Part shown: positions 12,365 through 49,115 of the stretch, one piece after another
How positions within the stretch are numbered: the stretch's first letter is position 1
How the letters are laid out: each line of letters begins with the position of its first letter
Assembly (NCBI GenBank): GCA_944371995.1
Contig: CALVYD010000007.1
Coordinates: 100 to 64,099, forward strand
DNA from: an uncultured Bacilli bacterium
GTDB lineage: Bacteria > Bacillota_I > Bacilli_A > RF39 > UBA660
Direction: 5' to 3'
Length of the DNA: 64,000 nt
Position numbers and translations under genes: made by a program
Notes under the pieces: model-generated
Seen by the model: the letters and a program-made list of their open reading frames with translations, nothing else
What the model was told of the DNA's origin: nothing
The model's database searches: none

Positions 12365-12961
12365 TTAATTAGCTTTACCATAAACATTAACTCTAACTTT
12401 ATAAGTAGCATTAGGATCAGTAATAACAGCTCCTTCTTTAACCCAGATTCTTAATCGATAATTATCAACTTGATTCGCAGATAGTGAAAATTTACTTAAA
12501 ACCATAGATTTAGCAGGACTACCAAGTTCTGTTTTTTTCTTAATAGGCGTAAATTCTTTAGGTTCATCAACTTTGGAATAGGTACCACTAGTTTGCTTTT
12601 CTAAATAAACCATAATATCACTATCAGATATCGTTGAAGAATCATCTTTCACCAAAGCAATCTCATAATCAACCGTAGTGTCACTATCAATATCAGAAGA
12701 TACAGAAAAATCAAAATAACTACCTTCAGCTCTGTTCTCCATCGCAACATCATTAGCAACTGGAGTTATAGAGTTCAACTGTAACCCGTTAACTTCTGTT
12801 TTATAATTCATAGAAACTGTACCTGTTTTAACAACCTCTTTTACATTTTTTTCTTGTTCCTTAAAAAACATAGTAAAAGCAACAGCAATAACCGCAATTA
12901 AAACAATGCTTAATAATACTAAGAAAATAACAATATTTTTTGTTTTACTTTTTGATTCCAT
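12365..12961 (-). CDS. TasA/camelysin-like secreted protein, paralog 2
   Basis: GGAGGAG RBS. TM then ...VAFTMF...KTGTVSMNYK, YFDFSVSS, DYEIALV, IMVYLEK, YRLRIWV, YKVRVNVYGKA. Only 8 nt from paralog 1. Confidence 0.6.
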   Translation of the reverse strand: MESKSKTKNIVIFLVLLSIVLIAVIAVAFTMFFKEQEKNVKEVVKTGTVSMNYKTEVNGLQLNSITPVANDVAMENRAEGSYFDFSVSSDIDSDTTVDYEIALVKDDSSTISDSDIMVYLEKQTSGTYSKVDEPKEFTPIKKKTELGSPAKSMVLSKFSLSANQVDNYRLRIWVKEGAVITDPNATYKVRVNVYGKAN

Positions 12962-14677: not shown

Positions 14678-16213
14678 TTACATTTCTTTAAAAAAATCAT
14701 CTCTATTAATCCTTTGAAATAAAGGAGTTGGAGAAAGTAATTGATACTGATTAGATGAATTATAATGAATGCTATTATCATGAATATTAAGTTGTCTCAT
14801 AATCTCTTTACTAGTACTAGGCATAAATGGTTCCAAATAAAGACCACATATACGAATAGATTCTAATAAATGATAAATAACACTCTGTAAACGATCTCTT
14901 TGAGATTCATCTTTTGCTAAAATCCAAGGAGTAGTCTCATCAATATATTTATTAGTAAAACGTAAAACATTAAATATTTCTGTAATAGCATCACTAATTT
15001 GTAAATCATTCATATGTGCATCAACTAAAGACTCTAATGCCTCAAGCTTATTTTCTAACTCTTTATCAATATCCTCTCTGCTATCATTACCAGTAACTAT
15101 ACCATCAAAATATTTGTTTCCCATGGAAATAGAGCGTTGTACTAAGTTTCCTAACACATTAGCAAGTTCTCCATTAATATGGTCAATTAATAAATCATAA
15201 GTAATATTACCATCACTAGCAAATGGAATTTCATGAAGTAAATAATAACGAACAGCATCTACTCCAAAAGCTTCTACCAATTCATCAGCATAAATAACAT
15301 TTCCTTTAGATTTACTCATCTTATCATTATTCATAAGTAACCAAGGATGTCCAAATATTTTCTTTGGTAAAGGAAGTCCTAAAGACCATAAAAAGCAAGG
15401 CCAGTAAATCGAATGAAAACGAACAATGTCTTTACCAATTACTTGCAAATCAGCAGGCCATAACTTTTTAAACTCCCCTGTTACTTCATCTACATCATAT
15501 CCAATATTAGTAATATAATTAGTCAAAGCATCAAGCCATACATAAATCACATGATTAGAATCAAAATCCACTGGAATTCCCCATTTAAATGAAGTACGAG
15601 AAACACATAAATCTTGAAGACCAGGTTTAATAAAATTATTTAACATTTCATTACGTCTTGCCGCTGGTTGTATAAAATCAGGATTAGATTCAATAAAATC
15701 CTCTAATTTCTTTTGATATTTACTTAATTTAAAGAAATAAGCTTCCTCTTTTGCTTCTTTTACTTCGCGCCCGCAATCAGGACACTTACCATCAACGAGC
15801 TGAGACTCCGTCCAAAAAGATTCACAAGGAGTACAATAAAGACCTGTATATTCACCTTTATAAATATCCCCTTGGTCATACATCTTCTTAAAAATATGTT
15901 GAACAATTCTTTTATGATGAGGATCAGTAGTTCTAACAAACTTATCATAACTAGTATCCATCAAATCCCAAATACGTTTAACTTCACCAGCCTGTTTATC
16001 CACAAAATCCTGTGGACTAACTCCTGCAGCAATCGCTTTATCCTCTATTTTTTGACCATGTTCATCAGTACCAGTTTGAAAATAAACATCATATCCTTTA
16101 AATCTTTTATATCTAGCAATCGCATCAGCTAAAACAATTTCATAAGTATTACCTATATGTGGCTTTCCAGAAGTATACGCAATTGCCGTTGTAATATAAA
16201 ATTTTTCTTTCAT
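14678..16213 (-). CDS. metG: methionine--tRNA ligase (short form)
   Basis: MKEKFYITTAIAYTSGKPHIGN (HIGH), CxxC...CPDC zinc knuckle, KMSKS. Start trimmed to ATG 16213 (AGGAGGG upstream). Confidence 0.93.
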   Translation of the reverse strand: MKEKFYITTAIAYTSGKPHIGNTYEIVLADAIARYKRFKGYDVYFQTGTDEHGQKIEDKAIAAGVSPQDFVDKQAGEVKRIWDLMDTSYDKFVRTTDPHHKRIVQHIFKKMYDQGDIYKGEYTGLYCTPCESFWTESQLVDGKCPDCGREVKEAKEEAYFFKLSKYQKKLEDFIESNPDFIQPAARRNEMLNNFIKPGLQDLCVSRTSFKWGIPVDFDSNHVIYVWLDALTNYITNIGYDVDEVTGEFKKLWPADLQVIGKDIVRFHSIYWPCFLWSLGLPLPKKIFGHPWLLMNNDKMSKSKGNVIYADELVEAFGVDAVRYYLLHEIPFASDGNITYDLLIDHINGELANVLGNLVQRSISMGNKYFDGIVTGNDSREDIDKELENKLEALESLVDAHMNDLQISDAITEIFNVLRFTNKYIDETTPWILAKDESQRDRLQSVIYHLLESIRICGLYLEPFMPSTSKEIMRQLNIHDNSIHYNSSNQYQLLSPTPLFQRINRDDFFKEM

Positions 16214-16224
16214 TCTATCCCTCC

Positions 16225-16455
16225 TAAATAAAAAAACTATTATAAACATAAGGACGAAAATTCGCGGTACCACCTTATTTTATAATAGTAAATATTATAC
16301 ACTCAAATAGTTAACGCCTATCTACGATTACACCTACATATCGATGCAACAGTTCAGAAGCCATATCTTATAAAAAGCTTATTTCCTTTTTCACCATCCG
16401 GAATCTCTAAACTAAACTATATTTTTATAAGACTCTTCCTCATCACATTCAACAG
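16225..16455 (-). promoter_or_regulatory. T-box leader (tRNA-sensing riboswitch) upstream of metG
   Basis: Minus strand shows a GA/K-turn (GTGATGAGGAAGAGT), an AGAGA box, CCGGATGGTGAAA, an ATG triplet in the candidate specifier region (AAGATATGGC), the F-box-like GGCGTTAAC, and the T-box AAGGTGGTACCGCGAA about 40 nt before the RBS. Confidence 0.7.
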
Positions 16456-21191: not shown

Positions 21192-21761
21192 TCACCTATT
21201 CTTACGATTATAGCGATTCATTAAAGACAAAAAATCCATAGAAAAATAATCATCTATAACATTTACTAAGTCTGAAAATAATTCATTTAAAATGATATTT
21301 TCTTCTTTAGAAAATCTTCCTAATACATAATCTTTAGTTTCACGATTTTTATCATTAGAAATTCCTATCTTTAACCTCTTATATTCTTGAGTATGGATAC
21401 ATGCTTCAATATTTCTAAGACCATTATGTCCACCACAAGAACCTTTATCTTTTAATTTAAAATTCCCAACATTCAAATCTAAATCATCAGAAATAACCAA
21501 TATATCTGACGTATCTATCTTAAAAAATTGAACAAACTGACTAACAACTATTCCTGATAAATTCATATACGATTGTGGTTTTAAAAACAAAACTTTCTCA
21601 CCATGGATATTAGTCTCAAAACAAAGTCCTTGAAACTTACTTTTCCAGCTTGGAATAATATTCTTTTTAGATAAATAAAAATCAATAAAAGAAAAGCCAA
21701 TATTATGTCTCGTACCCGAGTACTCTTTACCTGGATTACCAAGACCAACGATTAATTTCAC
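21192..21761 (-). CDS. pth: peptidyl-tRNA hydrolase
   Basis: MKLIVGLGNPGKEYSGTRHNIGF..., GGHNGLRNI. Confidence 0.93.
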   Translation of the reverse strand: MKLIVGLGNPGKEYSGTRHNIGFSFIDFYLSKKNIIPSWKSKFQGLCFETNIHGEKVLFLKPQSYMNLSGIVVSQFVQFFKIDTSDILVISDDLDLNVGNFKLKDKGSCGGHNGLRNIEACIHTQEYKRLKIGISNDKNRETKDYVLGRFSKEENIILNELFSDLVNVIDDYFSMDFLSLMNRYNRKNR

Positions 21762-21803: not shown

Positions 21804-21817
21804 ATTTCCCGGGAAAT
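21804..21817. promoter_or_regulatory. Noc-binding site (NBS) palindrome ATTTCCCGGGAAAT
   Basis: Exact match to the B. subtilis NBS 14-mer consensus. Embedded in the 22-bp perfect palindrome AATTATTTCCCGGGAAATAATT (21800-21821) between rsmI and pth. An identical 22-mer is at 29540-29561. Confidence 0.75.
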
Positions 21818-21819
21818 AA

Positions 21820-22662
21820 TTATTTCTTATTTTCATGATATTCTTTATAAATGATAGACTTAGCCACTCCTCTTTCTCTAGCAACTGTCTTAATCGCATC
21901 TTTTTCAGACATTCCATCATCCAAATAAAGTTGTACATGTTCCAAAACAGACATACTAGAATAATCTATTTTCTCATGATTACCATCTACAATTAAAACG
22001 AATTCTCCTCTTAATTCAGAAACAATTGGAATTAGTTCCTGTATTGTACCACGACAAATCTCTTCATGCAACTTTGAAATTTCTCTATGAATACTAATAT
22101 TACGATTACCAAAAACTTCTAACATATACCCTAAAGTTTTTTCAATACGATGTGGTGCTTCATAAAAAATCAACGTATAAGGTAACTTACTTAAGCTCAT
22201 AAGTTCTGCTTTAATCTTAGATTCTTTCGTTTGCAAAAATCCATAAAATAAGAATGGTGATGGAGAAATTCCAGAAGAAGTTAAAGCAGGAACGAATGCT
22301 GTAGCGCCTGGAAGAGCAATAACATTAAAATGATGTTCAATAACTGCCTTAGAAACAACATAGCCAGGATCACTTACAACAGGAGATCCCTGATCAGTAA
22401 TTAGACCTATATTTTTTCCACTAGCTAGTTCAGAAATAACATATTCTTTTATTTTATCTTCATTATACTCATGACAGCTAACAAGTTTTTTCTTAATATG
22501 AAAATGATTAAGTAACTTACTACTTTCTCTAGTATCTTCACATAAAATAAAATCAACAATCTCCAACGTCTTTAGTGCCCTTACTGTAATATCATCCAAA
22601 TTTCCAATTGGAGTAGGAATTAAATATAAACTAGCACTACCATCATAACTACTCTGTCTCAC
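21820..22662 (-). CDS. rsmI: 16S rRNA (cytidine1402-2'-O)-methyltransferase
   Basis: LYLIPTPIGNLDDITVRALKTL..., CEDTRES, tetrapyrrole-methylase fold pattern. Confidence 0.88.
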   Translation of the reverse strand: MRQSSYDGSASLYLIPTPIGNLDDITVRALKTLEIVDFILCEDTRESSKLLNHFHIKKKLVSCHEYNEDKIKEYVISELASGKNIGLITDQGSPVVSDPGYVVSKAVIEHHFNVIALPGATAFVPALTSSGISPSPFLFYGFLQTKESKIKAELMSLSKLPYTLIFYEAPHRIEKTLGYMLEVFGNRNISIHREISKLHEEICRGTIQELIPIVSELRGEFVLIVDGNHEKIDYSSMSVLEHVQLYLDDGMSEKDAIKTVARERGVAKSIIYKEYHENKK

Positions 22663-26171: not shown

Positions 26172-27926
26172 CTAATCAATTTCTACAATATCGCCAAATA
26201 ACATACTGGCATCATTAGATATTATATCATCTGTTTCTTCTTTTTTAAACACTTTTTCTGGCTCCTCTAAAACTTCATAATGATTTCCATCTTTTAAATG
26301 TTGAATATACTCTTTCTTTAATTTATCCCATTCTAAGTCAGATACAATAGCAAACTTCTTAGAGGCGTGAGTAATATCCGAATACACCTCTTCCATTTGT
26401 TCTAAATGTAATAAATTCTGCTGTACTATAGATTCATATTCGTAACTTAGAACAATTATATCATTGCTAGCAACACGAAATTTAGAATTTAATAGTTCAC
26501 AAACTAGATAACCTATTTTTTGATCAAAAGTATAGTCATTTAATAATTTTAAATTATCAATTTCATGATTTAAAACTTGTTTATTAGCCAAAGCAAAAGC
26601 GTTATTAATTCGAACTTTTATAATATCATCTAAATTCAAAATATCACCGGTATTAACATTGTCTACAACTTTTTTATCCACAGTAGATAAATCATCTTGA
26701 GAAATAGCATCATCATTAGAATTAGTAGAAATATCCACATTTTTCATTTCAGGTTCAGCAGACTCAACATTTTCATACTTATCATCATTAACAACATTAT
26801 TATGACCTATATTATCATTACTATTTTTTTCAACAGGTTTATTCTTAATTGAACTTACCTTATTATCCACAGATTTTGTGGAATTGGAATCAGAAATATC
26901 AGACATAAAATTCAACAATAATATTTCTATATAAATTTTAGGATTACCACTCTTTTTAATATCGAACATTTTTTCGTTTATAGTAGTGATTAATTTTTCC
27001 ACAAGTAAAACAGAATAATTAATACTATTTTGTTCTACATAATAATCAATCAATAAATCACGTAAATAATACATAAATTGCGACAGAATTTGAATAAGAT
27101 TTTTTCCACTATTATTAAAAGAATTAATTTGATTCAACACTTCTTTATAATTAACGGTAAATACAAAATCACATAATGTTTTTAAATCTTTTTTCGTAAT
27201 CAAACCATTCAATTCAGTATAAATATCCATAGTAATTAAATCATTAGTATAAGAACTAAGCTTATCCAAAATTCCCAAAGAATCGCGCATTCCACCATCA
27301 GATGAGATAGCAATCTCCCTTAAAACGTCATCTTCAATTAAAATATTTTCTTGATTACAAACGTATTTTAATCTTTGCACAATCATATCTGTAGAAATAC
27401 GTTCAAAAGAAAAGCATTGACAACGAGAAATAATAGTCTCAGGAACTTTTTGAGGATCAGTAGTTGCTAAAATAAAGATAGCGTGTTCTGGCGGTTCTTC
27501 TAACGTCTTTAATAACGCATTAAAAGCACCAATAGATAACATATGAACCTCATCAATAATATAAACTTTATATTTCAATTCACCTGGTACAAGATTAATC
27601 TTATTACGTAATTCACGAATCTCATCTACACCATTATTCGAAGCAGCATCAATCTCTAAAATATCAACACATTCTTTTTCACTAGCAATCAAACAATTTA
27701 TACATTTTCCACAAGGATTACCATCAACTGGTTCTAAGCAATTAACTGCTTTAGCAAAAATTTTAGATAAAGAGGTTTTTCCAGTTCCTCTAGATCCAAA
27801 AAACATATACGCATGGCAAAATTTATGCTGCAAAATAGAGTTTTTTAAAACCTTAACTACTGTAGTTTGACCTACAACATCATCAAAAGTTTGAGGCCTA
27901 TATTTTCTATATAAAGCTTGATACAT
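26172..27926 (-). CDS. dnaX: DNA polymerase III subunit gamma/tau
   Basis: MYQALYRKYRPQTFDDVVGQ, GSRGTGKTS, zinc module CGKCINC, IIDEVHML, SRCQ. Low-complexity Asn/Asp-rich linker at about aa 340-430. Confidence 0.95.
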   Translation of the reverse strand: MYQALYRKYRPQTFDDVVGQTTVVKVLKNSILQHKFCHAYMFFGSRGTGKTSLSKIFAKAVNCLEPVDGNPCGKCINCLIASEKECVDILEIDAASNNGVDEIRELRNKINLVPGELKYKVYIIDEVHMLSIGAFNALLKTLEEPPEHAIFILATTDPQKVPETIISRCQCFSFERISTDMIVQRLKYVCNQENILIEDDVLREIAISSDGGMRDSLGILDKLSSYTNDLITMDIYTELNGLITKKDLKTLCDFVFTVNYKEVLNQINSFNNSGKNLIQILSQFMYYLRDLLIDYYVEQNSINYSVLLVEKLITTINEKMFDIKKSGNPKIYIEILLLNFMSDISDSNSTKSVDNKVSSIKNKPVEKNSNDNIGHNNVVNDDKYENVESAEPEMKNVDISTNSNDDAISQDDLSTVDKKVVDNVNTGDILNLDDIIKVRINNAFALANKQVLNHEIDNLKLLNDYTFDQKIGYLVCELLNSKFRVASNDIIVLSYEYESIVQQNLLHLEQMEEVYSDITHASKKFAIVSDLEWDKLKKEYIQHLKDGNHYEVLEEPEKVFKKEETDDIISNDASMLFGDIVEID

Positions 27927-27980
27927 AAATGCACCTCCAAATAAACAAAAATATTATACCATAAAAAAAAGAGAACAAAC

Positions 27981-28430
27981 CTACTTATTTCTCTTCTTTA
28001 CAAAAAATTTTTTCATTAATTCGGATACTTTTTCCACAGCTAAATCATTAGAAATTAAAACATGGGAATTATTTTTATCTTTATTTAATATTTGTTTAAC
28101 AATTTCATAATTAGTAGTATCAGAATTTGATAATCCACAATAAATGTGATTAACTCTCGCCTGTTTTAATAAACTAGCACACATAGGGCAAGGTTCTAGA
28201 GTAACATAAACATCGCAACCTTCTAATCTCCAATTATTTAATTTCTTAGAAGCTTTTTCCACAGCTAAAACTTCTGCATGTTTGCTAGCACAACACAATT
28301 TTTCTTTCTTATTATAAGCTTTAGAGATAACCCTATCATCGCGTACAATAACACATCCAACGGGAACTTCATCAATTAAAAAAGCTTTTTGTGCTTCTTT
28401 TATTGCTAAATCCATAAATTTATTATTCAT
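27981..28430 (-). CDS. tadA: tRNA-specific adenosine deaminase
   Basis: HAEVLA and PCPMC deaminase zinc motifs, 149 aa. Confidence 0.92.
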   Translation of the reverse strand: MNNKFMDLAIKEAQKAFLIDEVPVGCVIVRDDRVISKAYNKKEKLCCASKHAEVLAVEKASKKLNNWRLEGCDVYVTLEPCPMCASLLKQARVNHIYCGLSNSDTTNYEIVKQILNKDKNNSHVLISNDLAVEKVSELMKKFFVKKRNK

Positions 28431-28450
28431 AAAATCACCTAAAAATAAAA

Positions 28451-28521
28451 GTGCACATAAAAGTTGACTATTAAGGCTGCTACCTCCCGGTCCTGACCTG
28501 GTTCTAGTACTTTTATTGCAC
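28451..28521 (-). ncRNA. ffs: small (4.5S-type) SRP RNA
   Basis: Minus strand GTGCAATAAAAGT-ACTAGAACCAGGTCAGGACCGGGAGGTAGCAGCC-TTAATAGTCA-ACTTTTATGTGCAC. The core matches the SRP domain IV consensus (CCAGGUCAGGUCCGGAAGGAAGCAGCC) with a GGGA tetraloop. A closing helix and a U-rich tail follow. Confidence 0.8.
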
Positions 28522-28528
28522 TATAGAT

Positions 28529-28557
28529 ATTTTAATATAAACAATGTTATTTGTAAA
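28529..28557 (-). promoter_or_regulatory. promoter for ffs (and possibly tadA)
   Basis: Minus strand TTTACA-17 nt-TAAAAT, 7 nt before the first G of the SRP RNA helix. Confidence 0.5.
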
Positions 28558-28579
28558 CAGTTTTTTGATTTCATTAATA

Positions 28580-28595
28580 TGTTCCACGTGGAACA
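28580..28595. promoter_or_regulatory. parS site 1: TGTTCCACGTGGAACA (perfect palindrome)
   Basis: Matches the Firmicute parS consensus TGTTNCACGTGAAACA. The palindrome extends to ATGTTCCACGTGGAACAT. Confidence 0.8.
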
Positions 28596-28690
28596 TTGCG
28601 CATAAGTTAGTAATATACAATAAAACAAAGAATAAAATTTAATAATAAGCAAATAATTAATATGTAATCATAACACAAAAGAAAAATTGA

Positions 28691-28706
28691 TGTTCCACGT
28701 AAAACA
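28691..28706. promoter_or_regulatory. parS site 2: TGTTCCACGTAAAACA
   Basis: One mismatch to consensus. Flanks extend the palindrome (TTGATG...CATCAA). Confidence 0.7.
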
Positions 28707-28844
28707 TCAATTGCACCTTGTAAAAAGATTAACTTTAAATAAAAAAACAATAAACTCAAATAAAAGTACTAATTACATAAATAAAGAAAATAATTTATAC
28801 ATATAATTATCAATAAATTAGCAAAAAATCTAACAAACAAAATA

Positions 28845-28860
28845 GGTTTCACGTGGAACA
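28845..28860. promoter_or_regulatory. parS site 3: GGTTTCACGTGGAACA
   Basis: One mismatch (first base) to TGTTTCACGTGGAACA. Confidence 0.7.
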
Positions 28861-28988
28861 TATATTTTTATAAATCATTAACAACACTATATAAATATAT
28901 TTCTTACAATAATAAATAGGTATTCTCAATTACATATAAAAAAGTTACAAAAATTATAAAAACCAAAAATCAACAAACTATATTATAA

Positions 28989-29004
28989 TGTTCCACGTGA
29001 AACA
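28989..29004. promoter_or_regulatory. parS site 4: TGTTCCACGTGAAACA
   Basis: Exact match to the B. subtilis parS consensus 16-mer. Confidence 0.85.
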
Positions 29005-29070
29005 TTACAAATAATCTTACCTAAATAAAAAACACTATAATTTAAAAGAAACAAGTATATTGACTAACTA

Positions 29071-29086
29071 TATTTCACGTGGAACA
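29071..29086. promoter_or_regulatory. parS site 5: TATTTCACGTGGAACA
   Basis: One mismatch (position 2). Confidence 0.7.
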
Positions 29087-29245
29087 TAAAATATTAAATA
29101 TAAAATTAACATATAAAAGATCTAATCAAGAAATTACATTATAATAAAAGTTAAAATTAATCATTTGATTATTCTATCAAAGAATATAAAAATATTTCTA
29201 AATATACAATTAACAAAATCATATTAAAATTAAAATGATATATAA

Positions 29246-29261
29246 TGTTCCACGTGGAACA
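29246..29261. promoter_or_regulatory. parS site 6: TGTTCCACGTGGAACA (perfect palindrome)
   Basis: Palindrome extends to ATAATGTTCCACGTGGAACATTAT (29242-29265). Confidence 0.8.
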
Positions 29262-29441
29262 TTATATTTTATACATAAAATAAACAATGAATGTAATAAG
29301 AAATAATACTTCTAATTTTTTAATAAAAATGAAGCAACCAAATTTATTAAAAAAATTCAAACTAAGAAACAAAATGAAAGAAAATATATTACCATATGAA
29401 CATTAAGAACATATTACTTAAAAAAATCTTAAGTTTCACAT

Positions 29442-29457
29442 AAAACATATAAATTAT
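29442..29457. promoter_or_regulatory. degenerate parS-like site AGTTTCACATAAAACA
   Basis: Three mismatches. Possibly a decayed seventh repeat. Confidence 0.3.
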
Positions 29458-29476
29458 CATAAAAAACAAATTAATT

Positions 29477-29485
29477 TTATCCACA
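29477..29485 (+). promoter_or_regulatory. perfect DnaA box TTATCCACA in the gyrA-ffs spacer
   Basis: Exact consensus 9-mer. A TTTTCCACA box follows at 29585-29593. Confidence 0.55.
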
Positions 29486-29543
29486 ATAAGAATATAAATA
29501 AAAATAATAATAATCTGTTTTTATTCGCAGTTTACGTTTAATT

Positions 29544-29557
29544 ATTTCCCGGGAAAT
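29544..29557. promoter_or_regulatory. Noc-binding site (NBS) palindrome ATTTCCCGGGAAAT
   Basis: Exact NBS consensus inside the 22-bp palindrome AATTATTTCCCGGGAAATAATT (29540-29561), identical to the copy at 21800-21821. Confidence 0.75.
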
Positions 29558-29659
29558 AATTTCCCAAACAATTTAGAAATGTATTTTTCCACAGTTAAAA
29601 CGCAAAAGATGAAATTACGATAAATAAAAACATAGATAAATCAATAGTTTATTAACGCA

Positions 29660-29690
29660 AATAAAAAACGAGAAACAAATTATCTCGTTT
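29660..29690 (-). terminator. rho-independent terminator after gyrA
   Basis: Minus strand ACGAGA-TAATTTGTT-TCTCGT followed by TTTTTTATTT. Confidence 0.65.
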
Positions 29691-29707
29691 TATTACTAAA
29701 AATAATT

Positions 29708-32248
29708 TTAATTATTTTCATCATTGTTTGATTTTTCCACAATATCTGAATTTTCTATTTGCGTATTTTCTACATCTGAATTTGTGCTTTCCACAGTTTG
29801 ATTTTCTTCGCTATTTTCTTCATTTTCGCTCATCTCTTCTTTTTCCACAACCGCAACCGTAGATACTTTTTGATCATCTTTCAAATTAATCAATCTAACA
29901 CCTTGTGTTGCTCTCTTTAACGTAGAAACCTGCTCTAATGGTAATTTTATAATCGTACCACTATCGGTAATAATCATTAAATCGTACTCACCATCAGCAT
30001 CAACACAATCCAAAGCAACCATCATACCATTCTTCTCAGTGATATTTAATGCTTTAACACCTTTACTTCCACGATGAGTTAAACGATATTCCTCAATTTC
30101 TGATTTCTTTCCATATCCATTTTCTGTAACAATAAGAATTAATTGACCTGGCTTAATTACTTCTGCTCCAATAACTTTACTTTCCTCAAGTTCAATACCT
30201 TTAACACCAGAAGCACTACGTCCCATGACACGAACCTCATCTTCATTAAAACGAACCATACGACCGTTATTAGCACCAATTGCTATCTCATCATTACCAG
30301 TAGTAACACCAACATAGATTAATTCATCATCATCTTTTAATCCAATAGCAATCTTACCACTCTTACGTATATTATCAAACTCAGAAAGCTCTGTACGTTT
30401 TACTAAACCTTGACGAGTAACAAATACTAAATACTTATGTTCTTCATTATCAGCAGATAGCGATATTATCGAATTAATGTTCTCGTTTTTTTCTAATGGT
30501 AATAAATTAATAATTGGTAATCCTTTAGATTGTCTACTAAATTCTGGAACTTCATAACCTTTCATACGATAAATTCTACCTTTATTAGAGAAGAATAGAA
30601 TATAATCATGGGTTTTCATTGAAACCAATTGCTCTACAAAATCCTCCTCATTAGTAGACATACCTTTAATACCTACTCCACCACGATTTTGAGTCTTATA
30701 AGTATCAGATTTTAATCTCTTAATATATCCTTTATTAGTTAAAGTAACAATAATATCTTCAACAGGAATTAATGACTCGTCTTCAATATATTCAATTGCA
30801 GTCATATCAATATTTGTACGACGTTCATCTCCATATTTATTCTTAATTTCTATCATTTCGTCTTTAATAATTTGTAATACTTTAGCTTCACTTGCTAATA
30901 TTGATTTTAATTCTTCAATTTCAGCAAGTAATTCTTGTAACTCATTCTCTATTTTATCTCTTTCCAATCCAGTTAAACGTCTTAACTTCATTTCCAAGAT
31001 AGCTTGAGCTTGAGCTTCAGATAATTTATAGTTATTTCTAAGGCCAATCATAGCTTCTTCATCGTTTTTAGCCGATTTTATCAACTGAATAATCTCATCA
31101 ATATGATCCAGTGCAATTTTTAATCCTTCTAAAATATGCGCTCTAGCTTCATCTCTAGCTAAATCAAACTTAGTACGACGAATAATAATTTCCTTTTGAT
31201 AATCAATATATTTAGAAATAATATCTTTTAATCCTAATGTTTTTGGAACACCTTGATCAAGCATTAAGAAAATAATTCCATAATTTGTCTGAAAAGCAGT
31301 ATGCTTATATAAATTATTAAGAACAACCTGAGGATTAGCATCTTTCTTAAGAGTAATCGTAATCTTAATACCATCTTTTAAATCCGTATGATAATCAGTA
31401 ATTCCATCAATTACTTTATTATGAACAAGTTCAGCAACCTTATTCTTTAATTCTAATGTATTAATACCATAAGGAACCTCATCCACAATAATATAATGTC
31501 TTCCATTTTTCTCTTCAATTCGTGCTTTACTACGAATAGTAATACTTCCTCTACCCGTTTCATAAGCCTTTCGAATACCACTATTACCTAAAATAGTAGC
31601 TCCTGTTGGAAAATCAGGACCTTTAATATATTGCATCAATCCATCAACATCAATATCAGGATTATCAATATAAGCAATACATCCATCAATGACCTCTTTT
31701 AAGTTATGTGGAGGAATGTTAGTAGCCATACCAACAGCAATTCCCATGGTACCATTAACTAAAATATTAGGAAATCTAGAAGGTAAAATTTCAGGTTCTT
31801 TTTCAGATTCATCAAAGTTTGGAATAAAATTAACTGTATCTTTATTAATATTTCTTAATAACTCCAACGAAATCTTAGATAATCTGGACTCAGTATAACG
31901 CATTGCTGCAGCACCATATCCCTCAATATTACCAAAGTTACCATGACCATCAACTAACATATAACGATATGAAAAGTCCTGGGCCATTCTAACCATAGCT
32001 TCATAAATACTAGAATCACCATGTGGATGATATTTACCCATGACATCTCCAACGATTCTAGCACTCTTTTTATGAGGTTTATCAGGTGTATAACCAGATT
32101 CATACATAGAATATAAAATACGTCTATGAACAGGCTTTAAACCATCTCTCAAGTCAGGTAAGGCACGAGAAACAATAACACTCATAGAATATTCAAGGAA
32201 AGAATCCCTTACTTCATTAACTATATTATTTTTTTCTAACTTATCCAT
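29708..32248 (-). CDS. gyrA: DNA gyrase subunit A (with acidic Glu/Asn/Ser-rich C-terminal tail)
   Basis: ...[18 protein letters not shown]..., active-site region AAMRYTE, GyrA box QRGGVGIKG-like (NRGGVGIKG), beta-pinwheel repeats. Confidence 0.97.
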
Positions 32249-35432: not shown

Positions 35433-35882
35433 TTATAAATTTGATTTTCTCTTTCTCATCATAAAATCTAATCTAGAAGCTCTAGATATTTGATTTTCTA
35501 AAGTACGATAGGAAACTGGAACAATAATTTCCTTATTATTATCAAAAATAACTTTGGTATTACTATTATCTATTCTTTCAAAATTCTTAACTCTCTTCAA
35601 AGAAATCCAAATACAATCATCTGATTTTGGTGATGTAGTTGGAAAAACAATTAAATTATCAGTATCTTCAACAATAACAGGAACTTTATATTCAGCACCT
35701 AAAATAAATCTAGCACTATCTTTTCTTCCTTCATAAGTACTACCAAAATACCTACAACTTTCTTCCATAATTTGAAATGGAGACTGTTCTATCAAAAAAC
35801 GATCCTCATCTTCATAAACCAAACTACTTTCATTTTCATTAGGCATAATAGCTAATGTTCCCTTATTAATTTCATATTCCAT
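35433..35882 (-). CDS. comK: ComK-family competence transcription factor
   Basis: Start ATG 35882 with AGGAGGGGG upstream. EINKGTLAIMPNE, QIMEESCRYFGSTYEGRKDSA, KVPVIV, LIVFPTTSPKSDDCIWISLKRVKNFE and VPVSYRTLENQISRASRL align block by block with B. subtilis ComK (EVNGATIAVLPEE, QIVDRSCRFFGSSYAGRKAG, FLFPTLS...CGWIS, LPISYNSFENQVYRTAWL). Confidence 0.8.
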   Translation of the reverse strand: MEYEINKGTLAIMPNENESSLVYEDEDRFLIEQSPFQIMEESCRYFGSTYEGRKDSARFILGAEYKVPVIVEDTDNLIVFPTTSPKSDDCIWISLKRVKNFERIDNSNTKVIFDNNKEIIVPVSYRTLENQISRASRLDFMMRKRKSNL

Positions 35883-35985
35883 AAAATTTCCCCCTCCTAA
35901 ACATGAAATTGTCACTAGAATAACAAAAGAAATTGTAGAGATTTGTCACTTTCTGTAACATCTCATATATATTATTAGAGAAATT

Positions 35986-37282: not shown

Positions 37283-38662
37283 TTACACAACTCCAATATC
37301 TTTTTTTAATTTTTCTATAATATTTGCTAAATCTTTATTAACTTTTATTTCTTTTTCAATTTTTTCTACAGAGTGCATAACTGTAGTATGGTCTTTTCCA
37401 CCAAATTCTGTTCCAATTTTAGGAAAAGATTCATTAGTCATAGTTCTACAGAGGTACATTGCAATCTGTCTTGGAAAAGAAATATTAGAACTTCTCTTTT
37501 TACTACGTATATCTTCAACAGAAATTTGGAAATATTCGGATACAATTTTTTGTATTCGTTGAATATCGTTCTTTTCACCCATTCCTTTACTGATAAAATC
37601 TTTTAAAGCTTCTATTGCCAAATCTAGAGTAATTTCAGCACCACCCATGATAGTAGAATAAGCAATTAATCTAGTAATAGAACCCTCTAATTGTCTAACA
37701 TCAGTACCAATATTAGACGCTATATACTCTACTACATCATCAGGAATTTCTTTTTCAAAATTACCAGCAATTATCTTTTTCTTTAATATTTCTGTTCTAA
37801 GTGCAAAGTCTGGAGGAAAAATATTGACTGTTAATCCCCAGCAAAACCTTGTTCTTAAACGATCTTCCAGTAATTTCAAATCGTCTGGAGAACGGTCTGA
37901 TGAAATAATAATTTGTTTACTATCATTATATAAAGTATTAAAAGTATGAAAAAATTCTTGTTGTGTTTGTGTAGCACCACCTAAAAACTGAATGTCATCA
38001 ATAATAAGTACGTCTATATTTCTATATTTATTTTTAAAGAAATCAACATAATTAAAGTTTGTTCCCTTATCATCTTTCTTATTAATACCAATAAAATCTT
38101 GAATAAATTGATCCGATGTAACATACAGCACTCTTCTATTACTATTTTCGGTAATATAGTTACCAATTGCGTGCATTAAATGCGTCTTACCTAACCCGCT
38201 ATTACCATAAATAAACAAAGGATTATACATATTACCAGGATTTTCAGCAACCGATAATGCCGCAGCATGAGCAAATTTATTACTATTTCCAACAATAAAG
38301 TTATCAAAGGTGTATTTACTCTTTAAATTAGATTGAATTTGATGATTAGGAACGCCAGCTTCCTCACTTTTTACTTGGAATTCTTCTATATCCCCTACTT
38401 TTTCCTCTTCTTCAATCTCTTCTTTTAATAAAAAAACAAGTTCAAAATTAGTACCGGTAATATCATTTAAATGGTTTAAAATTAATTCTGAATAATTATC
38501 TGCTAAATGTTTTTTGTGTATTGGCATAGGAACAATAATATAGGCCTTTCCATTATCCAATTTATATAATTTAGTATCTATAAACCATGTTTCAAAAGAA
38601 AGTGAGGTTAAGTCTTCTTTAACTTCAGTTAGAAATTTTGACCATAAAATATCTACATTCAT
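37283..38662 (-). CDS. dnaA: chromosomal replication initiator protein DnaA
   Basis: MNVDILWSKFL..., Walker A GNSGLGKTHL, IDDIQFL, C-terminal DNA-binding ...FGGKDHTTVMHSVEKI. Start trimmed to ATG 38662. Confidence 0.97.
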   Translation of the reverse strand: MNVDILWSKFLTEVKEDLTSLSFETWFIDTKLYKLDNGKAYIIVPMPIHKKHLADNYSELILNHLNDITGTNFELVFLLKEEIEEEEKVGDIEEFQVKSEEAGVPNHQIQSNLKSKYTFDNFIVGNSNKFAHAAALSVAENPGNMYNPLFIYGNSGLGKTHLMHAIGNYITENSNRRVLYVTSDQFIQDFIGINKKDDKGTNFNYVDFFKNKYRNIDVLIIDDIQFLGGATQTQQEFFHTFNTLYNDSKQIIISSDRSPDDLKLLEDRLRTRFCWGLTVNIFPPDFALRTEILKKKIIAGNFEKEIPDDVVEYIASNIGTDVRQLEGSITRLIAYSTIMGGAEITLDLAIEALKDFISKGMGEKNDIQRIQKIVSEYFQISVEDIRSKKRSSNISFPRQIAMYLCRTMTNESFPKIGTEFGGKDHTTVMHSVEKIEKEIKVNKDLANIIEKLKKDIGVV

Positions 38663-38769
38663 TCGACCATCTCCCCACAAGCAAAATTGATACCAATAGT
38701 TTAGCTCAAAATGTGTAAAAAAGAAATAGAAAAATTAAAAAAAAAGTAATTCACACACAATACACAATA

Positions 38770-38888
38770 AAATCCACAATCAGATAGTAAGTATATATAA
38801 GGAAAAATAAACTTTTCCACATTTTCCACAAATTTAAATACACACTTGCGAGTAAAATAAATCACAACCCTGTGGATTATGTGGAAAA
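38770..38888. other. oriC part 1: DnaA-box cluster upstream of dnaA
   Basis: AAATCCACA 38770-38778, tandem TTTTCCACA 38813-38821 and 38822-38830, and inverted TGTGGATTA 38871-38879 and TGTGGAAAA 38880-38888. Confidence 0.8.
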
Positions 38889-38915
38889 GAAAAAAATAAA
38901 AAAAATAACTTATGA

Positions 38916-38945
38916 TTGACAAAAATGTGATATTATTATTATAAT
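38916..38945 (+). promoter_or_regulatory. sigma-A promoter of the rpmH-rnpA operon
   Basis: TTGACA-18 nt-TATAAT, about 30 nt before the rpmH RBS GGAGGTGG. Confidence 0.6.
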
Positions 38946-38976
38946 AATGTAGATTTATGTCTGGAGGTGGAAGAAG

Positions 38977-39099
38977 ATGAAAAGAACATATCAACCAAAT
39001 AATCGTAAAAAATCAAAAAAATTAGGTTTTTTCGCACGTAAGAAAACAAATATATTAAATCGTCGTCGTCGCAAAGGTCGTAAAAGTCTTTGTAAATAA
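38977..39099 (+). CDS. rpmH: 50S ribosomal protein L34 (40 aa)
   Basis: Below the track cutoff. MKRTYQPNNRKKSKKLGFFARKKTNILNRRRRKGRKSLCK, GGAGG RBS. Confidence 0.92.
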   Translation: MKRTYQPNNRKKSKKLGFFARKKTNILNRRRRKGRKSLCK

Positions 39100-45842: not shown

Positions 45843-47327
45843 ATGAAAATGAATCAAGAACAAAAAGATGAAATTGTTTATCTATACTTAGACGATATAA
45901 TACCCAATAGATTTCAACCTCGCGAAGTCTTTGATGAAAGAGCATTAAAAGAACTTGCTGTATCAATAAAAGAACATGGTGTAATACAACCTATCATTGT
46001 ACGAAACGTTAATGGAAAATATGAAATAATTGCTGGAGAGCGAAGATATAAAGCATCAGCAATGGCAGGACTTACTAAAATACCAGCAATCATTAGAAAT
46101 TTGGATGATAAAGAAAGTTCAAAAGTAGCATTATTAGAAAATCTTCAAAGAAGAAACTTAAATCCAATAGAAGAAGCTAGAACTTATCAAAAAATATTAG
46201 AAATAGATCAAATGACACAAGAAGAATTAGCCAAAACCATGGGAAAAAGTCAATCAGCAGTGGCTAATAAAATTAGATTGTTAGGCCTTTCAGACGAAGT
46301 ACAAACAGCTTTATTAAAAGAACAAATTTCTGAACGACATGCACGAACCTTATTAAATATTCCAGATAAGAAAAAACAAAATGAAATGCTTAAAAAGGTA
46401 ATCAATGAAAAAATGACCGTTCGACAATTAGAACAAGAAATAAAAGATATGTACCCTAGAGAGAAAGGAGAACCTATGAATAATCCAGCCATGAACATGT
46501 CATCTGCTCCGATAACATCCACATCATTTGTAAATAGTAGCCCTTTAATGCCTACTGCAGATTTACCAGAGGATACTTCAGATTATGGAAAAATAAGAAT
46601 AGCACCGCCAGATGGCGAAAATACAGAAGAGCATACTCCTAGATTTATTAACTATGGAGAAATCAATGACGACGATGACGATCAAGATGATAATCCTGTA
46701 GGAGGATTCAATCCAAACAGCAACCAGCAAATACCAAATATAAATGATATAAAAGCGAATGCAATGGATATCAATGCTCCAGCAGCAAAACCAAGTGCAG
46801 ATCTAGATAGCTTATTAAATCTTAGTGCAGCACCAATACCTACAACTACAAACCCTGAACATGAAAACTTTAGATTTATTACGCCAGCAGAAGAAATAGT
46901 AAAAACAGATGAAAATAAGGTAAATCAAGTAAAAAATGAAGATTACTTTAAAACACCAGATTTAATCCCTGTTGATTTGCCTTCAGAAGTACAAACAAAA
47001 AATACCAATACTGTTTCTTTAGACGAAATAGAAGGAAATCCACTGTTATCTTTAACTAAATCAAATGTTAATACGGATTCGCGTAGAGAAAAACCAAATC
47101 AAGCAATGAAAACCAATTCTAATCTAAATACAGCATTGTTCGGTGAGGTAAAACGTCCAGAAGTAAATTCCAAAAAGAATGAACAATTTACAGTACAAAA
47201 ATCAATAGATATGGTAAGAAATTTAGTAGAAGAATTAAATCGACATGGTGTAAAAGCTGATATTGATGAAATGAATTTTGCAAAATCATATCAAATTATC
47301 ATAAAATTAGATAAAACAGCAGAATAA
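45843..47327 (+). CDS. noc: ParB-family nucleoid occlusion protein Noc, atypical: no N-terminal amphipathic helix and a roughly 230-aa low-complexity insertion
   Basis: ParB N-domain (IIPNRFQPR, IIAGERRYKAS). HTH with Noc-type specificity residues (GKSQSAVANKIRLL, ISERHARTLL). Then a Pro/Asn/Asp/Thr-rich region at about aa 205-440 and a short structured C-terminus (...VRNLVEELNRHGVKADIDEMNFAKSYQIIIKLDK). The true start may be ATG 45849. Confidence 0.8.
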   Translation: MKMNQEQKDEIVYLYLDDIIPNRFQPREVFDERALKELAVSIKEHGVIQPIIVRNVNGKYEIIAGERRYKASAMAGLTKIPAIIRNLDDKESSKVALLENLQRRNLNPIEEARTYQKILEIDQMTQEELAKTMGKSQSAVANKIRLLGLSDEVQTALLKEQISERHARTLLNIPDKKKQNEMLKKVINEKMTVRQLEQEIKDMYPREKGEPMNNPAMNMSSAPITSTSFVNSSPLMPTADLPEDTSDYGKIRIAPPDGENTEEHTPRFINYGEINDDDDDQDDNPVGGFNPNSNQQIPNINDIKANAMDINAPAAKPSADLDSLLNLSAAPIPTTTNPEHENFRFITPAEEIVKTDENKVNQVKNEDYFKTPDLIPVDLPSEVQTKNTNTVSLDEIEGNPLLSLTKSNVNTDSRREKPNQAMKTNSNLNTALFGEVKRPEVNSKKNEQFTVQKSIDMVRNLVEELNRHGVKADIDEMNFAKSYQIIIKLDKTAE

Positions 47328-47378: not shown

Positions 47379-47449
47379 TGCGAAAAGCATTTAAAAAACA
47401 CTATTTATTTGATACAATATATTAGTAAAAATGGAAACAGGTGATAAAC

Positions 47450-48235
47450 ATGGGAAAGGTGATATCATTAGTAAATCAAAAAGGTGGAGTAGGAAAAACC
47501 ACAACTAGTATCAATCTTTCTGCATCATTAGCAGTATTAGGAAAGAAAGTATTATTAATCGATTTAGATCCTCAAGGTAATACAACTACAGGTGTTGGAA
47601 TTAACAAAGGAGATATAGAACGCAGTGTTTATGATGTTTTAATTGGAGAATGCAAAATAGAAGAAGCAATGATTAAAACAAAATACAAAAACTTATATGT
47701 ATTACCAGCTACAATTAATTTAGCAGGATTAGATATAGAATTAGTAGAAAAAAGTAAACAAGAATCTGGATTCTTAAAAGGAGAACAATTAAAAATTCAT
47801 TTATTAGACATAAAAGATAGCTTTGATTATATAATTATTGATTGTCCACCATCATTAGGAATCATTACTACAAATGCTTTAACAGCATCTAATTCTGTAA
47901 TAATTCCAGTACAATGTGAATTCTTTGCTCTAGAAGGAATCACACAATTATTAAAAACAATTATGTTAGCTCAGAAAAGTCTAAATCCAACACTAGATAT
48001 TGAAGGTGTCTTATTAACAATGTTAGATTCTAGAACCAATTTAGGTTTTGAAGTAGTAGATGATATTAGAAAGTTCTTTAAAGAAAAAGTATATAACACA
48101 ATTATTCCAAGATTAGTAAGATTAACTGAAGCTCCATCACATGGAGAACCAATCATAGCATATGACCCTAAAAGTAGAGGTAGTGAAGCTTATTTAAACC
48201 TAGCAAAGGAAGTGATTGAAAGAAATGGAAAATAA
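47450..48235 (+). CDS. soj: chromosome partitioning ATPase ParA/Soj
   Basis: MGKVISLVNQKGGVGKTTTSINL (deviant Walker A), DCPPSLG. Confidence 0.95.
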   Translation: MGKVISLVNQKGGVGKTTTSINLSASLAVLGKKVLLIDLDPQGNTTTGVGINKGDIERSVYDVLIGECKIEEAMIKTKYKNLYVLPATINLAGLDIELVEKSKQESGFLKGEQLKIHLLDIKDSFDYIIIDCPPSLGIITTNALTASNSVIIPVQCEFFALEGITQLLKTIMLAQKSLNPTLDIEGVLLTMLDSRTNLGFEVVDDIRKFFKEKVYNTIIPRLVRLTEAPSHGEPIIAYDPKSRGSEAYLNLAKEVIERNGK

Positions 48236-49115
48236 TAAAAGAAGAGCTTTAGGTAGAGGATTAGAAGAATTATTTTATAATGAACCAATTGCTTATGATA
48301 AAATGGAAGAAAAAATACTAACTGAAACACCAAAAGAAGAAATAATAAAAGTAAAATTAGATGAACTTAGAAGCAATCCATATCAACCAAGACAAGTATT
48401 TAATGAGGAAGCATTACAAGAATTAGCTGACTCTATTAAAGAACATGGCGTATTTCAACCTATTATTATAAAAAAGAGTATCAAGGGATATGAAATTATT
48501 GCCGGAGAACGTCGTGTAAAAGCTTCTAAATTAGCAGGATTAGATGAAATTCCAGCTATTGTTAGAGATTTTACTGATGAAGAAATGATGGAAATTGCTC
48601 TTCTAGAAAATCTACAAAGAGAAAACTTAAATCCAATGGAAGAATCGCGTGCTTATAAAAAGTTAATAGAAACATTAAATATAACCCAGGAAGAACTAGC
48701 TAAGAAATTAGGTAAAAGTAGAAGTTATATTACAAATATGATAGGATTACAAAAACTTCCATCATCAATTCAAACGATGATTTCTGATAACAAAATGAGT
48801 ATGGGACATGCCAGGGTTTTAAGTAAACTAGAAAATGAAGAACAACAAAAGGAATTAGCAGATAAAATAACAACAGAAGGAATTAGTGTAAGAGAGTTAG
48901 AAAACATGACTCAGTCTACTGAAAAATTTGCAAGAACACACCAAATTCAAAAACACGTGCCAAAAACAAATGAATATCAATACTTAGAAGAAGAGTTATG
49001 TGATAAATTGGGAACCAGAGTAAAAATTAAATCAAATAAAATAGAAATTAGTTTTGTAAATGGAAACGACCTAAATCGCCTACTAGAAATAATGAATCTA
49101 GACACAAGGAGGTAA
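48216..49115 (+). CDS. spo0J: chromosome partitioning protein ParB/Spo0J
   Basis: RRALGRGLEELF, LRSNPYQPRQVF, IIAGERRVKAS. HTH with ParB-type residues (GKSRSYITNMIGL, MSMGHARVL). Confidence 0.93.
   Translation: MKEMENNKRRALGRGLEELFYNEPIAYDKMEEKILTETPKEEIIKVKLDELRSNPYQPRQVFNEEALQELADSIKEHGVFQPIIIKKSIKGYEIIAGERRVKASKLAGLDEIPAIVRDFTDEEMMEIALLENLQRENLNPMEESRAYKKLIETLNITQEELAKKLGKSRSYITNMIGLQKLPSSIQTMISDNKMSMGHARVLSKLENEEQQKELADKITTEGISVRELENMTQSTEKFARTHQIQKHVPKTNEYQYLEEELCDKLGTRVKIKSNKIEISFVNGNDLNRLLEIMNLDTRR

Follow-up and report, generated by a model that had tools for sequence, protein, structure and literature searches.

A gene-free spacer after gyrA carries six parS sites and a Noc-type site and is probably the origin-proximal centromere in an uncultured Bacilli lineage

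No chromosome-partition system is more widespread among bacteria than parS–ParB, and Noc is the textbook case of a duplicated ParB that gained both a different DNA specificity and a different role. In Bacillus subtilis, the parS sites are scattered singly and lie mostly inside genes. The clusters of Myxococcus xanthus, Streptomyces coelicolor, Corynebacterium glutamicum, and Caulobacter crescentus span several kb to 200 kb, genic sites included, and plasmid centromeres such as sopC of F are tandem ParB-box repeats. In numbers, B. subtilis has 10 parS, 8 of which are origin-proximal, and the origin-proximal clusters comprise 22 sites in M. xanthus, 21 in S. coelicolor, 10 in C. glutamicum, and 5 in C. 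crescentus (PMC7022226, Table 1). Specificity for parS is conferred by the equivalents of R173 and G201, and specificity for the Noc-binding site (NBS) by Q173, R201, and a lysine at 179 and/or 184 (PMC7383237). The N-terminal amphipathic membrane-targeting helix of Noc is needed for nucleoid occlusion (PMC8429893).

We analyzed a 64-kb stretch of DNA from an uncultured Bacilli bacterium, referred to below as the window. A gene-free spacer of ~1.2 kb (28528..29707) extends from ffs to the stop codon of gyrA, and it holds six parS sites, a decayed parS-like copy, an NBS, and two DnaA boxes. Coordinates of the spacer, the parS sites, and the NBS are given without strand. We consider it probable, at roughly 0.8, that this spacer is the origin-proximal centromere of the chromosome, and that the NBS loads a Noc-type paralogue at the same locus, which would make it a composite centromere.

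Scanning the whole window for the 16-bp palindrome TGTTNCACGTGNAACA at ≤2 mismatches returned exactly six matches, all with 0–1 mismatch, in agreement with the first-pass annotation. These are parS 1 (28580..28595, TGTTCCACGTGGAACA, 0 mismatches), parS 2 (28691..28706, TGTTCCACGTAAAACA, 1 mismatch), parS 3 (28845..28860, GGTTTCACGTGGAACA, 1 mismatch), parS 4 (28989..29004, TGTTCCACGTGAAACA, 0 mismatches), parS 5 (29071..29086, TATTTCACGTGGAACA, 1 mismatch), and parS 6 (29246..29261, TGTTCCACGTGGAACA, 0 mismatches). Dinucleotide-preserving shuffles gave a mean of 0.14 sites, and none of 100 shuffles reached six or more. The intervals between successive sites measured 111, 154, 144, 82, and 175 bp, matching the range of 82–175 bp read earlier, and the six sites occupy 0.7 kb of non-coding DNA. 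As had also been noted, no parS was found at ≤2 mismatches in parB (spo0J) or in any other part of the window. The decayed copy was present with 3 mismatches (AGTTTCACATAAAACA), although it occupies 29432..29447 and not 29442, where it had been placed; it is one of only three matches in the window with exactly 3 mismatches, and its flanking DNA shows 72% similarity to that around parS 2 (28691; flank family D4).

The earlier description of the array as tandem did not hold for the window. TRF found no repeat unit containing parS there, the similarity around each palindrome reaches only ~10–25 bp outward, and the spacing is irregular; a strict head-to-tail repeat was therefore rejected. The distance from dnaA had been put at about 9 kb. 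Judged by the GC-skew switch and dnaA, oriC maps to ~38.7–39.1 kb, 9–10 kb from the array; the parS sites lie 8–10 kb from dnaA and the switch. The identical six sites were recovered in six independent metagenome assemblies (L001–L006), and thus the array is not an assembly artefact, a concern that the first-pass annotation had raised.

No two neighboring ORFs of ≥90 aa in the window are farther apart than the two that flank the spacer, tadA (27981–28430) on one side and gyrA (29708–32248) on the other. The only ORFs between them are 43 and 50 aa long, which bears out the claim that the interval has no ORF of ≥60 aa. Its sole gene is ffs, encoding the small SRP RNA (28442..28527, minus strand; Rfam, 57.5 bits), which bounds the array; Rfam and a motif scan detected no other ncRNA or hidden element in the spacer. 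The motif scan located an ffs promoter-like site at 28557–28529 on the minus strand, and parS 1 lies ~25 bp upstream of its –35 hexamer. Toward gyrA, a terminator-like hairpin (29660..29688, minus strand) was read by eye as ACGAGA, a 9-nt loop, and TCTCGT, followed by a T-run on the minus strand; the hairpin scan had overlooked it due to its loop limit of 8 nt. Lying past the gyrA terminator and ahead of the ffs promoter, the array would offer loading sites outside genes that are not swept by long-operon transcription.

A comparison of the gyrA–tadA spacer in related genomes, proposed in the first-pass annotation, was carried out on 87 related loci (1.45 Mb), each of which spans only 10 kb either side. 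All 313 parS sites detected at ≤1 mismatch in these loci fall 1–2119 bp downstream of the gyrA stop, and at least two were present in every one of the 64 loci having ≥500 bp of sequence after gyrA. Fourteen positions of the 16-mer and a flanking A...T were nearly invariant among 271 sites. The spacer itself ranged from 211 to 2285 bp in 59 relatives (median 792), and the DNA between the sites could hardly be aligned even among close relatives (mean column identity 55%). Between the window and its closest relative, L007, GyrA is 97% identical, yet the parS sites number six versus three. Strict tandem parS units do exist in relatives such as L077, L045, L035, and L076, with periods of 36–136 bp. 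A metagenome scan for loci covering both the array and the parB operon, anchored on a DnaA alignment, used patterns that proved too generic; the only relatives among its matches, L087–L092 and L104, confirmed the arrays. With parS kept at one syntenic place amid poorly aligning spacer, the comparison shows selection on the sites rather than on the spacer.

The window encodes the proteins expected to use such sites. The canonical ParB/Spo0J (48216..49115, plus strand) carries an N-terminal peptide of the ParA-interaction type, KRRALGRGLEELF, and the CTP motif GERRVKA. The two positions that determine parS specificity are occupied by R and G, within a stretch reading ...GKSRS...SMGHAR. Its closest solved structure is B. 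subtilis Spo0J (6sdk, E 1e-62). The ParA/Soj ATPase is encoded at 47441..48235 (plus strand), and both genes lie 19 kb from the array. In their consensus, location, cognate ParB, and conservation, the palindromes agree with chromosomal parS, and on this sequence evidence we assign them as parS and the array as origin-proximal. The core of the earlier proposal, a compact centromere, was borne out by the parS match, the confinement to non-coding DNA, the encoded ParA and parS-type ParB, and the selection on the sites. It is highly improbable that the palindromes are something other than ParB sites, such as targets of a different CACGTG-binding regulator, REP/MITE-like repeats, or RNA hairpins. 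The palindromes are perfect and one of them was scored as a terminator-like hairpin in the hairpin scan, as that reading would predict; against it, the parS consensus is matched at 14 specified positions in more than 300 sites, these occur at one syntenic locus only with no REP/MITE-like dispersal, Rfam gave no match, and a cognate ParB is encoded.

Two exact NBS were found in the window. The first, ATTTCCCGGGAAAT at 29544 (palindrome TATTTCCCGGGAAATA, 29543..29558), lies ~150 bp from the gyrA stop, where the first-pass annotation had read it, and in L007 both it and its flanking sequence are conserved. The second (21804..21817) is located between the ORFs 21192–21761 and 21820–22662, homologues of Pept_tRNA_hydro and TP_methylase, and is kept at an equal distance from the array in L007, L010–L014, and L020. 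In the origin-proximal DNA of the related loci, the NBS density was 1.89/kb inside parS arrays ±300 bp versus 0.035/kb elsewhere. This 54-fold enrichment extends to the clade the juxtaposition of ParB and Noc sites described for the window. An NBS lies ≤300 bp from a parS in 58 of 77 loci and ≤60 bp in 46, and in relatives (e.g., L077, L045, L035, and L043) the two site types often alternate in tandem units. Judged by this distribution, the NBS at 29544 is non-random. We found no published account of an alternating parS/NBS layout. The composite array looks like a new variant, the clustered parS themselves being already known in other phyla.

The predicted reader of the NBS is a 494-aa Noc-type ParB paralogue (45843..47327, plus strand). 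Its closest solved structures are those of Noc (7nfu, E 2e-62), and the NBS-specifying residues are present as Q137, K143, and R165; the fourth position holds G148. None of 121 homologues departs from Q, K, and R. It is not a canonical Noc, as the helix is missing and a long disordered linker is present. The protein starts with MKMNQEQKDE, only ~10 residues before ParB-N, and has no N-terminal amphipathic membrane-targeting helix. All homologues share this short N-terminus. B. subtilis Noc is ~19 residues longer at this end (its chain residue 25 aligns with query residue 6). The linker (residues 206–445, ~240 aa) is predicted to be disordered and includes the conserved short motifs RFINYGEI, DLDSLLN, FITPAEEIVKTD, and DYFKTPDL. 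In the AlphaFold2 model (pLDDT 62 overall), only the DNA-binding and C-terminal domains were confident. Homology of the small C-terminal domain to those of Noc and ParB found little support: Pfam returned no match, and NCBIfam gave only a weak one (E 0.03), in which the L087 orthologue matches the Noc model over its final 38 positions.

The NBS may also be independent of the centromere. The spacer would then be an ordinary parS centromere, an NBS would merely share the sole sizeable non-coding DNA near the origin, and the two paralogues would be uncoupled. We regard this as unlikely, though well worth weighing. The window has a single NBS in the array, separated from the last and nearest intact parS by 283 bp (298 bp start to start), with no tight pair. 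Some NBS lie away from the arrays, one at 21804 in the window and, in relatives, others at +1.7, +5, and +6.8 kb. The basal clades have parS-only arrays despite a Q/K/R paralogue, and duplication of any unit with both sites would yield the alternation automatically. On the other side stand the strong enrichment in arrays, the rarity of NBS in other intergenic DNA (1.3 Mb examined), and the recurrence of pairs within 60 bp in many lineages, with periods of 56, 62, 64, 75, 84, 97, and 136 bp. Tight pairs in lineages of differing repeat period indicate that the pairing was kept or rebuilt repeatedly.

In favor of a composite centromere, a relative with tight parS/NBS pairs (L074/L171) has the same operon of long paralogue, ParA, and ParB. 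Co-variation of the array NBS with the Noc-type DNA-binding domain gave a mixed picture and was not used as support. L087, with a parS-only array, fits, since its paralogue lost the ParB-N and HTH domains. The basal L076/L167 and L173 do not fit: both retain the long Q/K/R paralogue. The sequence covered for L076/L167 includes the array and yielded no NBS; that for L173 stops short of the array. No parA–parB follows the paralogue in L167, L173, or L087. With a basal Q/K/R paralogue lacking both an NBS and a following parA–parB, protein and site do not correspond cleanly.

The first-pass annotation had included DnaA as a third partner at the spacer. The boxes were confirmed, a perfect 9-mer TTATCCACA at 29477..29485 on the plus strand and one with a single mismatch at 29585–29593; their significance is doubtful. 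A role of DnaA as a hub component was set aside as unsupported, since no more than 25 of 75 related arrays contain a perfect box and boxes in the spacer and its surroundings are about as dense as the local strand-biased background. The same data bear on the possibility that the array is chiefly regulatory, either in ParB/DnaA/Soj replication control or as a ParB roadblock or insulator between gyrA and ffs. This is improbable in our estimate. It would accommodate the two boxes, the conservation of the variant box and the adjacent NBS in L007, the higher density of perfect boxes in arrays (0.39/kb versus 0.11/kb elsewhere in the related loci), and the position of parS 1 near the ffs promoter-like site. 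However, conservation of the perfect box is weak, boxes with ≤1 mismatch are common on the same strand throughout 26.6–29.9 kb and show no clade-wide enrichment, and the free variation in parS number and spacing suits a loading platform more than a fixed promoter architecture. The enrichment of DnaA boxes at the neighboring dnaX likewise did not recur across the clade.

The analysis shows what the sites are, how many there are, where they lie, and how they are conserved, and it shows which proteins are present and their residue signatures. From this we infer that ParB and its paralogue bind and load as clamps, that SMC is recruited, and that the two paralogues are functionally coupled. ParB would nucleate on the six high-affinity parS, close as a CTP-bound clamp, and slide onto the neighboring DNA. 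ParA would act on the resulting partition complex, which may recruit SMC as in other Bacillota; no smc gene was found in the 64-kb window, and SMC loading is thus proposed entirely by analogy. The NBS at 29544 would serve as the loading site for the second ParB-family CTPase, the 494-aa paralogue, and its place beside the parS array suggests that the two paralogues load at one locus. The arrays presumably expand and contract through local duplication and decay, with selection preserving the 16–18-bp palindromes. A more specific proposal, which we offer tentatively and at somewhat less than even odds, is a two-reader element. Here, interleaved parS and NBS would bring ParB and the helix-less Noc-derived paralogue into one mixed partition complex, the Noc lineage having been redeployed from nucleoid occlusion to origin organization or segregation, or retaining an ancestral role that preceded nucleoid occlusion.

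Even on a conservative reading, these results define the centromere of a clade known only from metagenomes and supply a strong synteny marker for it. Throughout a large gut lineage that is uncultured and genome-reduced, two site types stay adjacent at a fixed locus, and the Noc-type protein found here is without the defining feature of nucleoid occlusion. Should both proteins load, the locus would be a natural case of two CTP-dependent DNA clamps on one loading platform. It would then bear on the evolution of Noc function, illustrate the expansion and contraction of centromere arrays, and provide ready-made orthogonal arrays for DNA-labelling tools.

The array shares with the B. subtilis Spo0J/ParB–parS system the 16-bp consensus, the protein family, the ParA/Soj partner, and the origin-proximal position. 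Unlike in B. subtilis, six parS are packed into 0.7 kb of non-coding DNA after gyrA, and none lies in parB. This contrast with Bacillus, pointed out in the first-pass annotation, is real, but dense origin-proximal clusters in other phyla mean that it is not unprecedented (PMC7022226, Table 1). As in M. xanthus, S. coelicolor, C. glutamicum, and C. crescentus, many origin-proximal parS form one partition region; the differences lie in the phylum, the dedicated spacer, the interleaved second site type, and the true tandem units (36–136 bp) of relatives. Plasmid F sopC resembles the locus in that palindromic ParB sites are repeated in non-coding DNA, with a copy number that varies by duplication, whereas the consensus and the ParAB proteins here are chromosomal and the spacing in the window is irregular instead of a strict repeat. 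The NBS palindrome is identical to that of the Noc–NBS system of Bacillus, Geobacillus, and Staphylococcus (PMC7383237, PMC8429893, PMC4331003). The paralogue also resembles Noc in having the Q173, K179, and R201 equivalents and in its gene position between rsmG and parA, as for noc, and it differs in lacking the N-terminal amphipathic membrane-targeting sequence and in its predicted disordered linker of ~240 aa. In the Noc–NBS system, the NBS are scattered and depleted near the terminus, whereas here, within the origin-proximal DNA compared, they are concentrated in the centromere array.

A pattern search of the window for TGTTNCACGTGNAACA, allowing up to two mismatches, returned exactly six matches, all inside the spacer between ffs and gyrA. 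They start at 28580, 28691, 28845, 28989, 29071, and 29246, so the parS coordinates, sequences, and spacings of the first-pass annotation were reproduced. The chance expectation in shuffled sequence was 0.14 matches, and none of 100 shuffles reached six. The decayed seventh copy was also found, although ten bases away from the position first assigned to it, at 29432–29447; it carries three mismatches, and only three matches of that grade occur in the window. The spacer (28528–29707) is free of genes, its longest ORF being 50 aa, and it is the widest gap among ORFs of at least 90 aa within the 64 kb. On one side it is bounded by ffs, the small SRP RNA gene (28442–28527, minus strand; Rfam, 57.5 bits), and on the other by the gyrA stop codon (gyrA, 29708–32248, minus strand; NCBIfam). 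A terminator-like hairpin followed by a T-run was read directly from the sequence at 29660–29688 on the gyrA (minus) strand, and a promoter-like site precedes ffs at 28557–28529; therefore, the array sits between two transcription units. The sites had also been described as tandem, which did not hold for the window in the strict sense: Tandem Repeats Finder gave no unit containing the parS sites, and the similarity between copies fades within 10–25 bp of the palindrome.

The GC content of the window is 23–34%. The GC skew changes sign at 38–40 kb, beside dnaA (37283–38680), which places the array 8–10 kb from dnaA/oriC. Four DnaA-box-like sites immediately upstream of dnaA (38813–38888) are the likely oriC. 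They are overlapped by a 97-aa ORF (38701–38994, minus strand) without a Pfam match, which gene callers annotated in L004, one of the independent assemblies of the array, yet it is probably not a gene. Between dnaN and recF, we noted a ComK-family ORF (35433–35915, minus strand; PF06338, E = 2e-47), with a ComK-family gene in the equivalent place in each of the 29 related loci examined for that interval. A T-box leader (16247–16452, minus strand; Rfam, 101.9 bits) overlaps the 5′ end of a 531-aa ORF (14678–16273), into which it probably leads. The window GyrA shares 97% identity with GyrA from MAGs that bear the labels "uncultured Bacilli bacterium" and Candidatus Faecimonas intestinavium (a genus placed by NCBI in Bacilli incertae sedis), and 75–94% with GyrA from dozens of gut MAGs whose labels read Bacilli, Tenericutes, Mollicutes, or Erysipelotrichaceae.

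Twenty-three contigs encode the exact TadA protein, and six independent assemblies spanning the spacer (L001–L006) share the same six parS sites, which rules out an assembly artefact. For a wider comparison, 87 related loci (1.45 Mb) were collected, 80 fetched with GyrA and seven with DnaA. These hold 313 parS sites with at most one mismatch, every one lying 1–2119 bp downstream of the gyrA stop codon. All 64 loci having at least 500 bp of sequence after this stop carry at least two sites. Across 271 full-length sites, 14 of the 16 positions are near-invariant, as is a flanking A...T that extends the palindrome to 18 bp. The surroundings vary: the gyrA–tadA spacer ranges from 211 to 2285 bp in the relatives, with 0–12 parS sites between the two genes, and between close relatives the spacers can scarcely be aligned (mean column identity of 55%). 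The closest relative, L007, shares 97% GyrA identity with the window and has three parS sites against six. Many relatives (e.g., L076, L075, L077, L045, and L035) have the sites arranged as perfect tandem repeats, whose periods are 36–136 bp. Conserved sites, varying spacers, and tandem repeats together are a signature of selection on the sites, and they indicate an array whose copies arise by duplication and are lost by decay while selection maintains the sites.

Downstream of rsmG, the window encodes a 494-aa ParB-family paralogue (45843–47327), ParA (47441–48235), and a 299-aa ParB (48216–49115), in this order. Among solved structures, B. subtilis Spo0J (6sdk, E = 1e-62) gave the best alignment with the 299-aa ParB. 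This ParB contains the GERRVKA motif, its N-terminal peptide is KRRALGRGLEELF, and it has arginine at position 173 and glycine at 201 (Caulobacter numbering), residues absolutely conserved in parS-specific ParB (Jalal et al. 2020, PMC7383237). Six parS sites, an array conserved across the clade, and an encoded Spo0J-type ParB give good in silico support (probability of about 0.8) to the proposal that the spacer would act as a compact ParB centromere.

The window contains two exact copies of the Noc-binding site (NBS) core, ATTTCCCGGGAAAT, one in the spacer (29544) and one at 21804, both lying within the full 16-mer TATTTCCCGGGAAATA. The second site (21804–21817) falls in the gap between the ORFs 21192–21761 and 21820–22662. 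Its counterpart lies at the same distance from the array (6.7–6.9 kb) in L007, L010–L014, and L020, and thus it is a conserved solitary site. In the related loci, NBS density (at most one mismatch) was 1.89 per kb in the parS arrays ±300 bp and 0.035 per kb elsewhere, a 54-fold enrichment. An NBS lies within 300 bp of a parS in 58 of 77 loci, and within 60 bp in 46. Neighbouring sites were parS/NBS in 268 pairs, parS/parS in 148, and NBS/NBS in 32, the commonest start-to-start distance being 26 bp. Many lineages have one parS and one NBS per repeat unit, with periods of 56 (L029), 62 (L043), 64 (L045), 75 (L077), 84 (L035), 97 (L039), and 136 bp (L066). This enrichment and pairing make the noted juxtaposition with a Noc-type site real and clade-wide. 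No description of natural parS/NBS interleaving was found in the literature searched. At the gyrA-proximal end of the spacer, the close relatives L013 (12515–13000) and L007 (~12600–12700) contain a repeated module in which the DnaA-box variant CTGTGGAAAA precedes an NBS or near-NBS; this may be a small conserved unit separate from the array's parS portion.

For the 494-aa paralogue, the best-aligning structures were those of Noc (7nfu, E = 2e-62), which outranked every ParB. At positions 173, 179, 184, and 201 (Caulobacter numbering), the paralogue has Q, K, G, and R, respectively; Q173 and R201 combined with one lysine, at either 179 or 184, are enough to confer NBS specificity (PMC7383237). 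All 121 homologues compared (430–510 aa) have the same Q, K, and R. Judged from its sequence, the protein is nevertheless not a canonical Noc. The Noc proteins of B. subtilis and Geobacillus bind the membrane via a 10-residue N-terminal amphipathic helix, and nucleoid occlusion is impaired without it (PMC8429893). The paralogue begins with MKMNQEQKDE and passes directly into the ParB-N domain, whereas B. subtilis Noc has ~19 extra N-terminal residues (chain residue 25 aligned with query residue 6); all homologues share the short N-terminus. A linker of ~240 aa (residues 206–445), rich in N, P, D, E, T, and S, separates the DNA-binding domain from a small C-terminal domain. AlphaFold2 gave the linker low confidence (block mean pLDDT 39–68) and almost no secondary structure, predicting disorder, and the C-terminal domain a confident helix–strand–strand fold. 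Short linker motifs are kept in 59 non-redundant homologues (FVNxxPLxPT, YGKxxIAPP, (R/K)FINYGEI, DLDSLLN, FITPAEEIVKTD, and DYFKTPDL), and we take them to be putative docking peptides.

In the GyrA tree, arrays without NBS lie in basal branches and mixed arrays in the crown, which includes the window. We asked whether NBS in the arrays tracks the Noc-type DNA-binding domain of the paralogue, using the genomes L087, L076/L167 (one genome), L173, and L172; the outcome was mixed. In the basal relative L087, with a parS-only array, the gene after rsmG (933–2279) encodes 448 aa comprising only the linker and C-terminal domain; the ParB-N and HTH domains are missing, as is a downstream parAB. In L167 (14499–16271) and L173 (14037–15851), likewise basal, this gene encodes a 590–604-aa protein keeping Q/K/R, with no parA–parB after it. 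No NBS was seen in the 33 kb examined of the L076/L167 genome, although its long protein keeps Q/K/R. L172 has all three genes. L074, with tight parS/NBS pairs, has the operon of the window (long paralogue, ParA, ParB, and MscS), as seen in L171 from the same genome.

The juxtaposition with DnaA fared differently. Both boxes exist in the spacer, a perfect one at 29477 and a variant at 29585, the latter conserved in L007 together with the NBS. However, we do not count DnaA as an established partner of the locus: of 75 related arrays, only 25 contain a perfect box (0.39 per kb in arrays vs. 0.11 elsewhere). Among the 41 boxes of the window (at most one mismatch), 13 fall within 26674–29849, all on the plus strand and mostly inside dnaX and tadA. 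Since dnaX is not enriched clade-wide (median of 1.17 vs. 0.96 per kb), this run probably reflects strand or codon bias. The suggested hub is supported for the Noc-type site, but not for DnaA. That the array is a composite centromere with two readers is a possibility we raise tentatively.

Origin-proximal, multi-copy parS sites are well documented, with 10 in B. subtilis (8 near the origin), 4 in S. pneumoniae, 10 in C. glutamicum, 21 in S. coelicolor, 5 in C. crescentus, and 22 in M. xanthus (PMC7022226, Table 1). The parS cluster as such is already known elsewhere. The present array differs from the documented clusters in its density (six sites in 0.7 kb), in having a dedicated spacer of non-coding DNA, fixed at one syntenic position throughout the clade, and in the true tandem architecture of relatives. 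The chief difference is the shared array with NBS, accompanied by a Noc-type paralogue that lacks the membrane helix and has a long linker.
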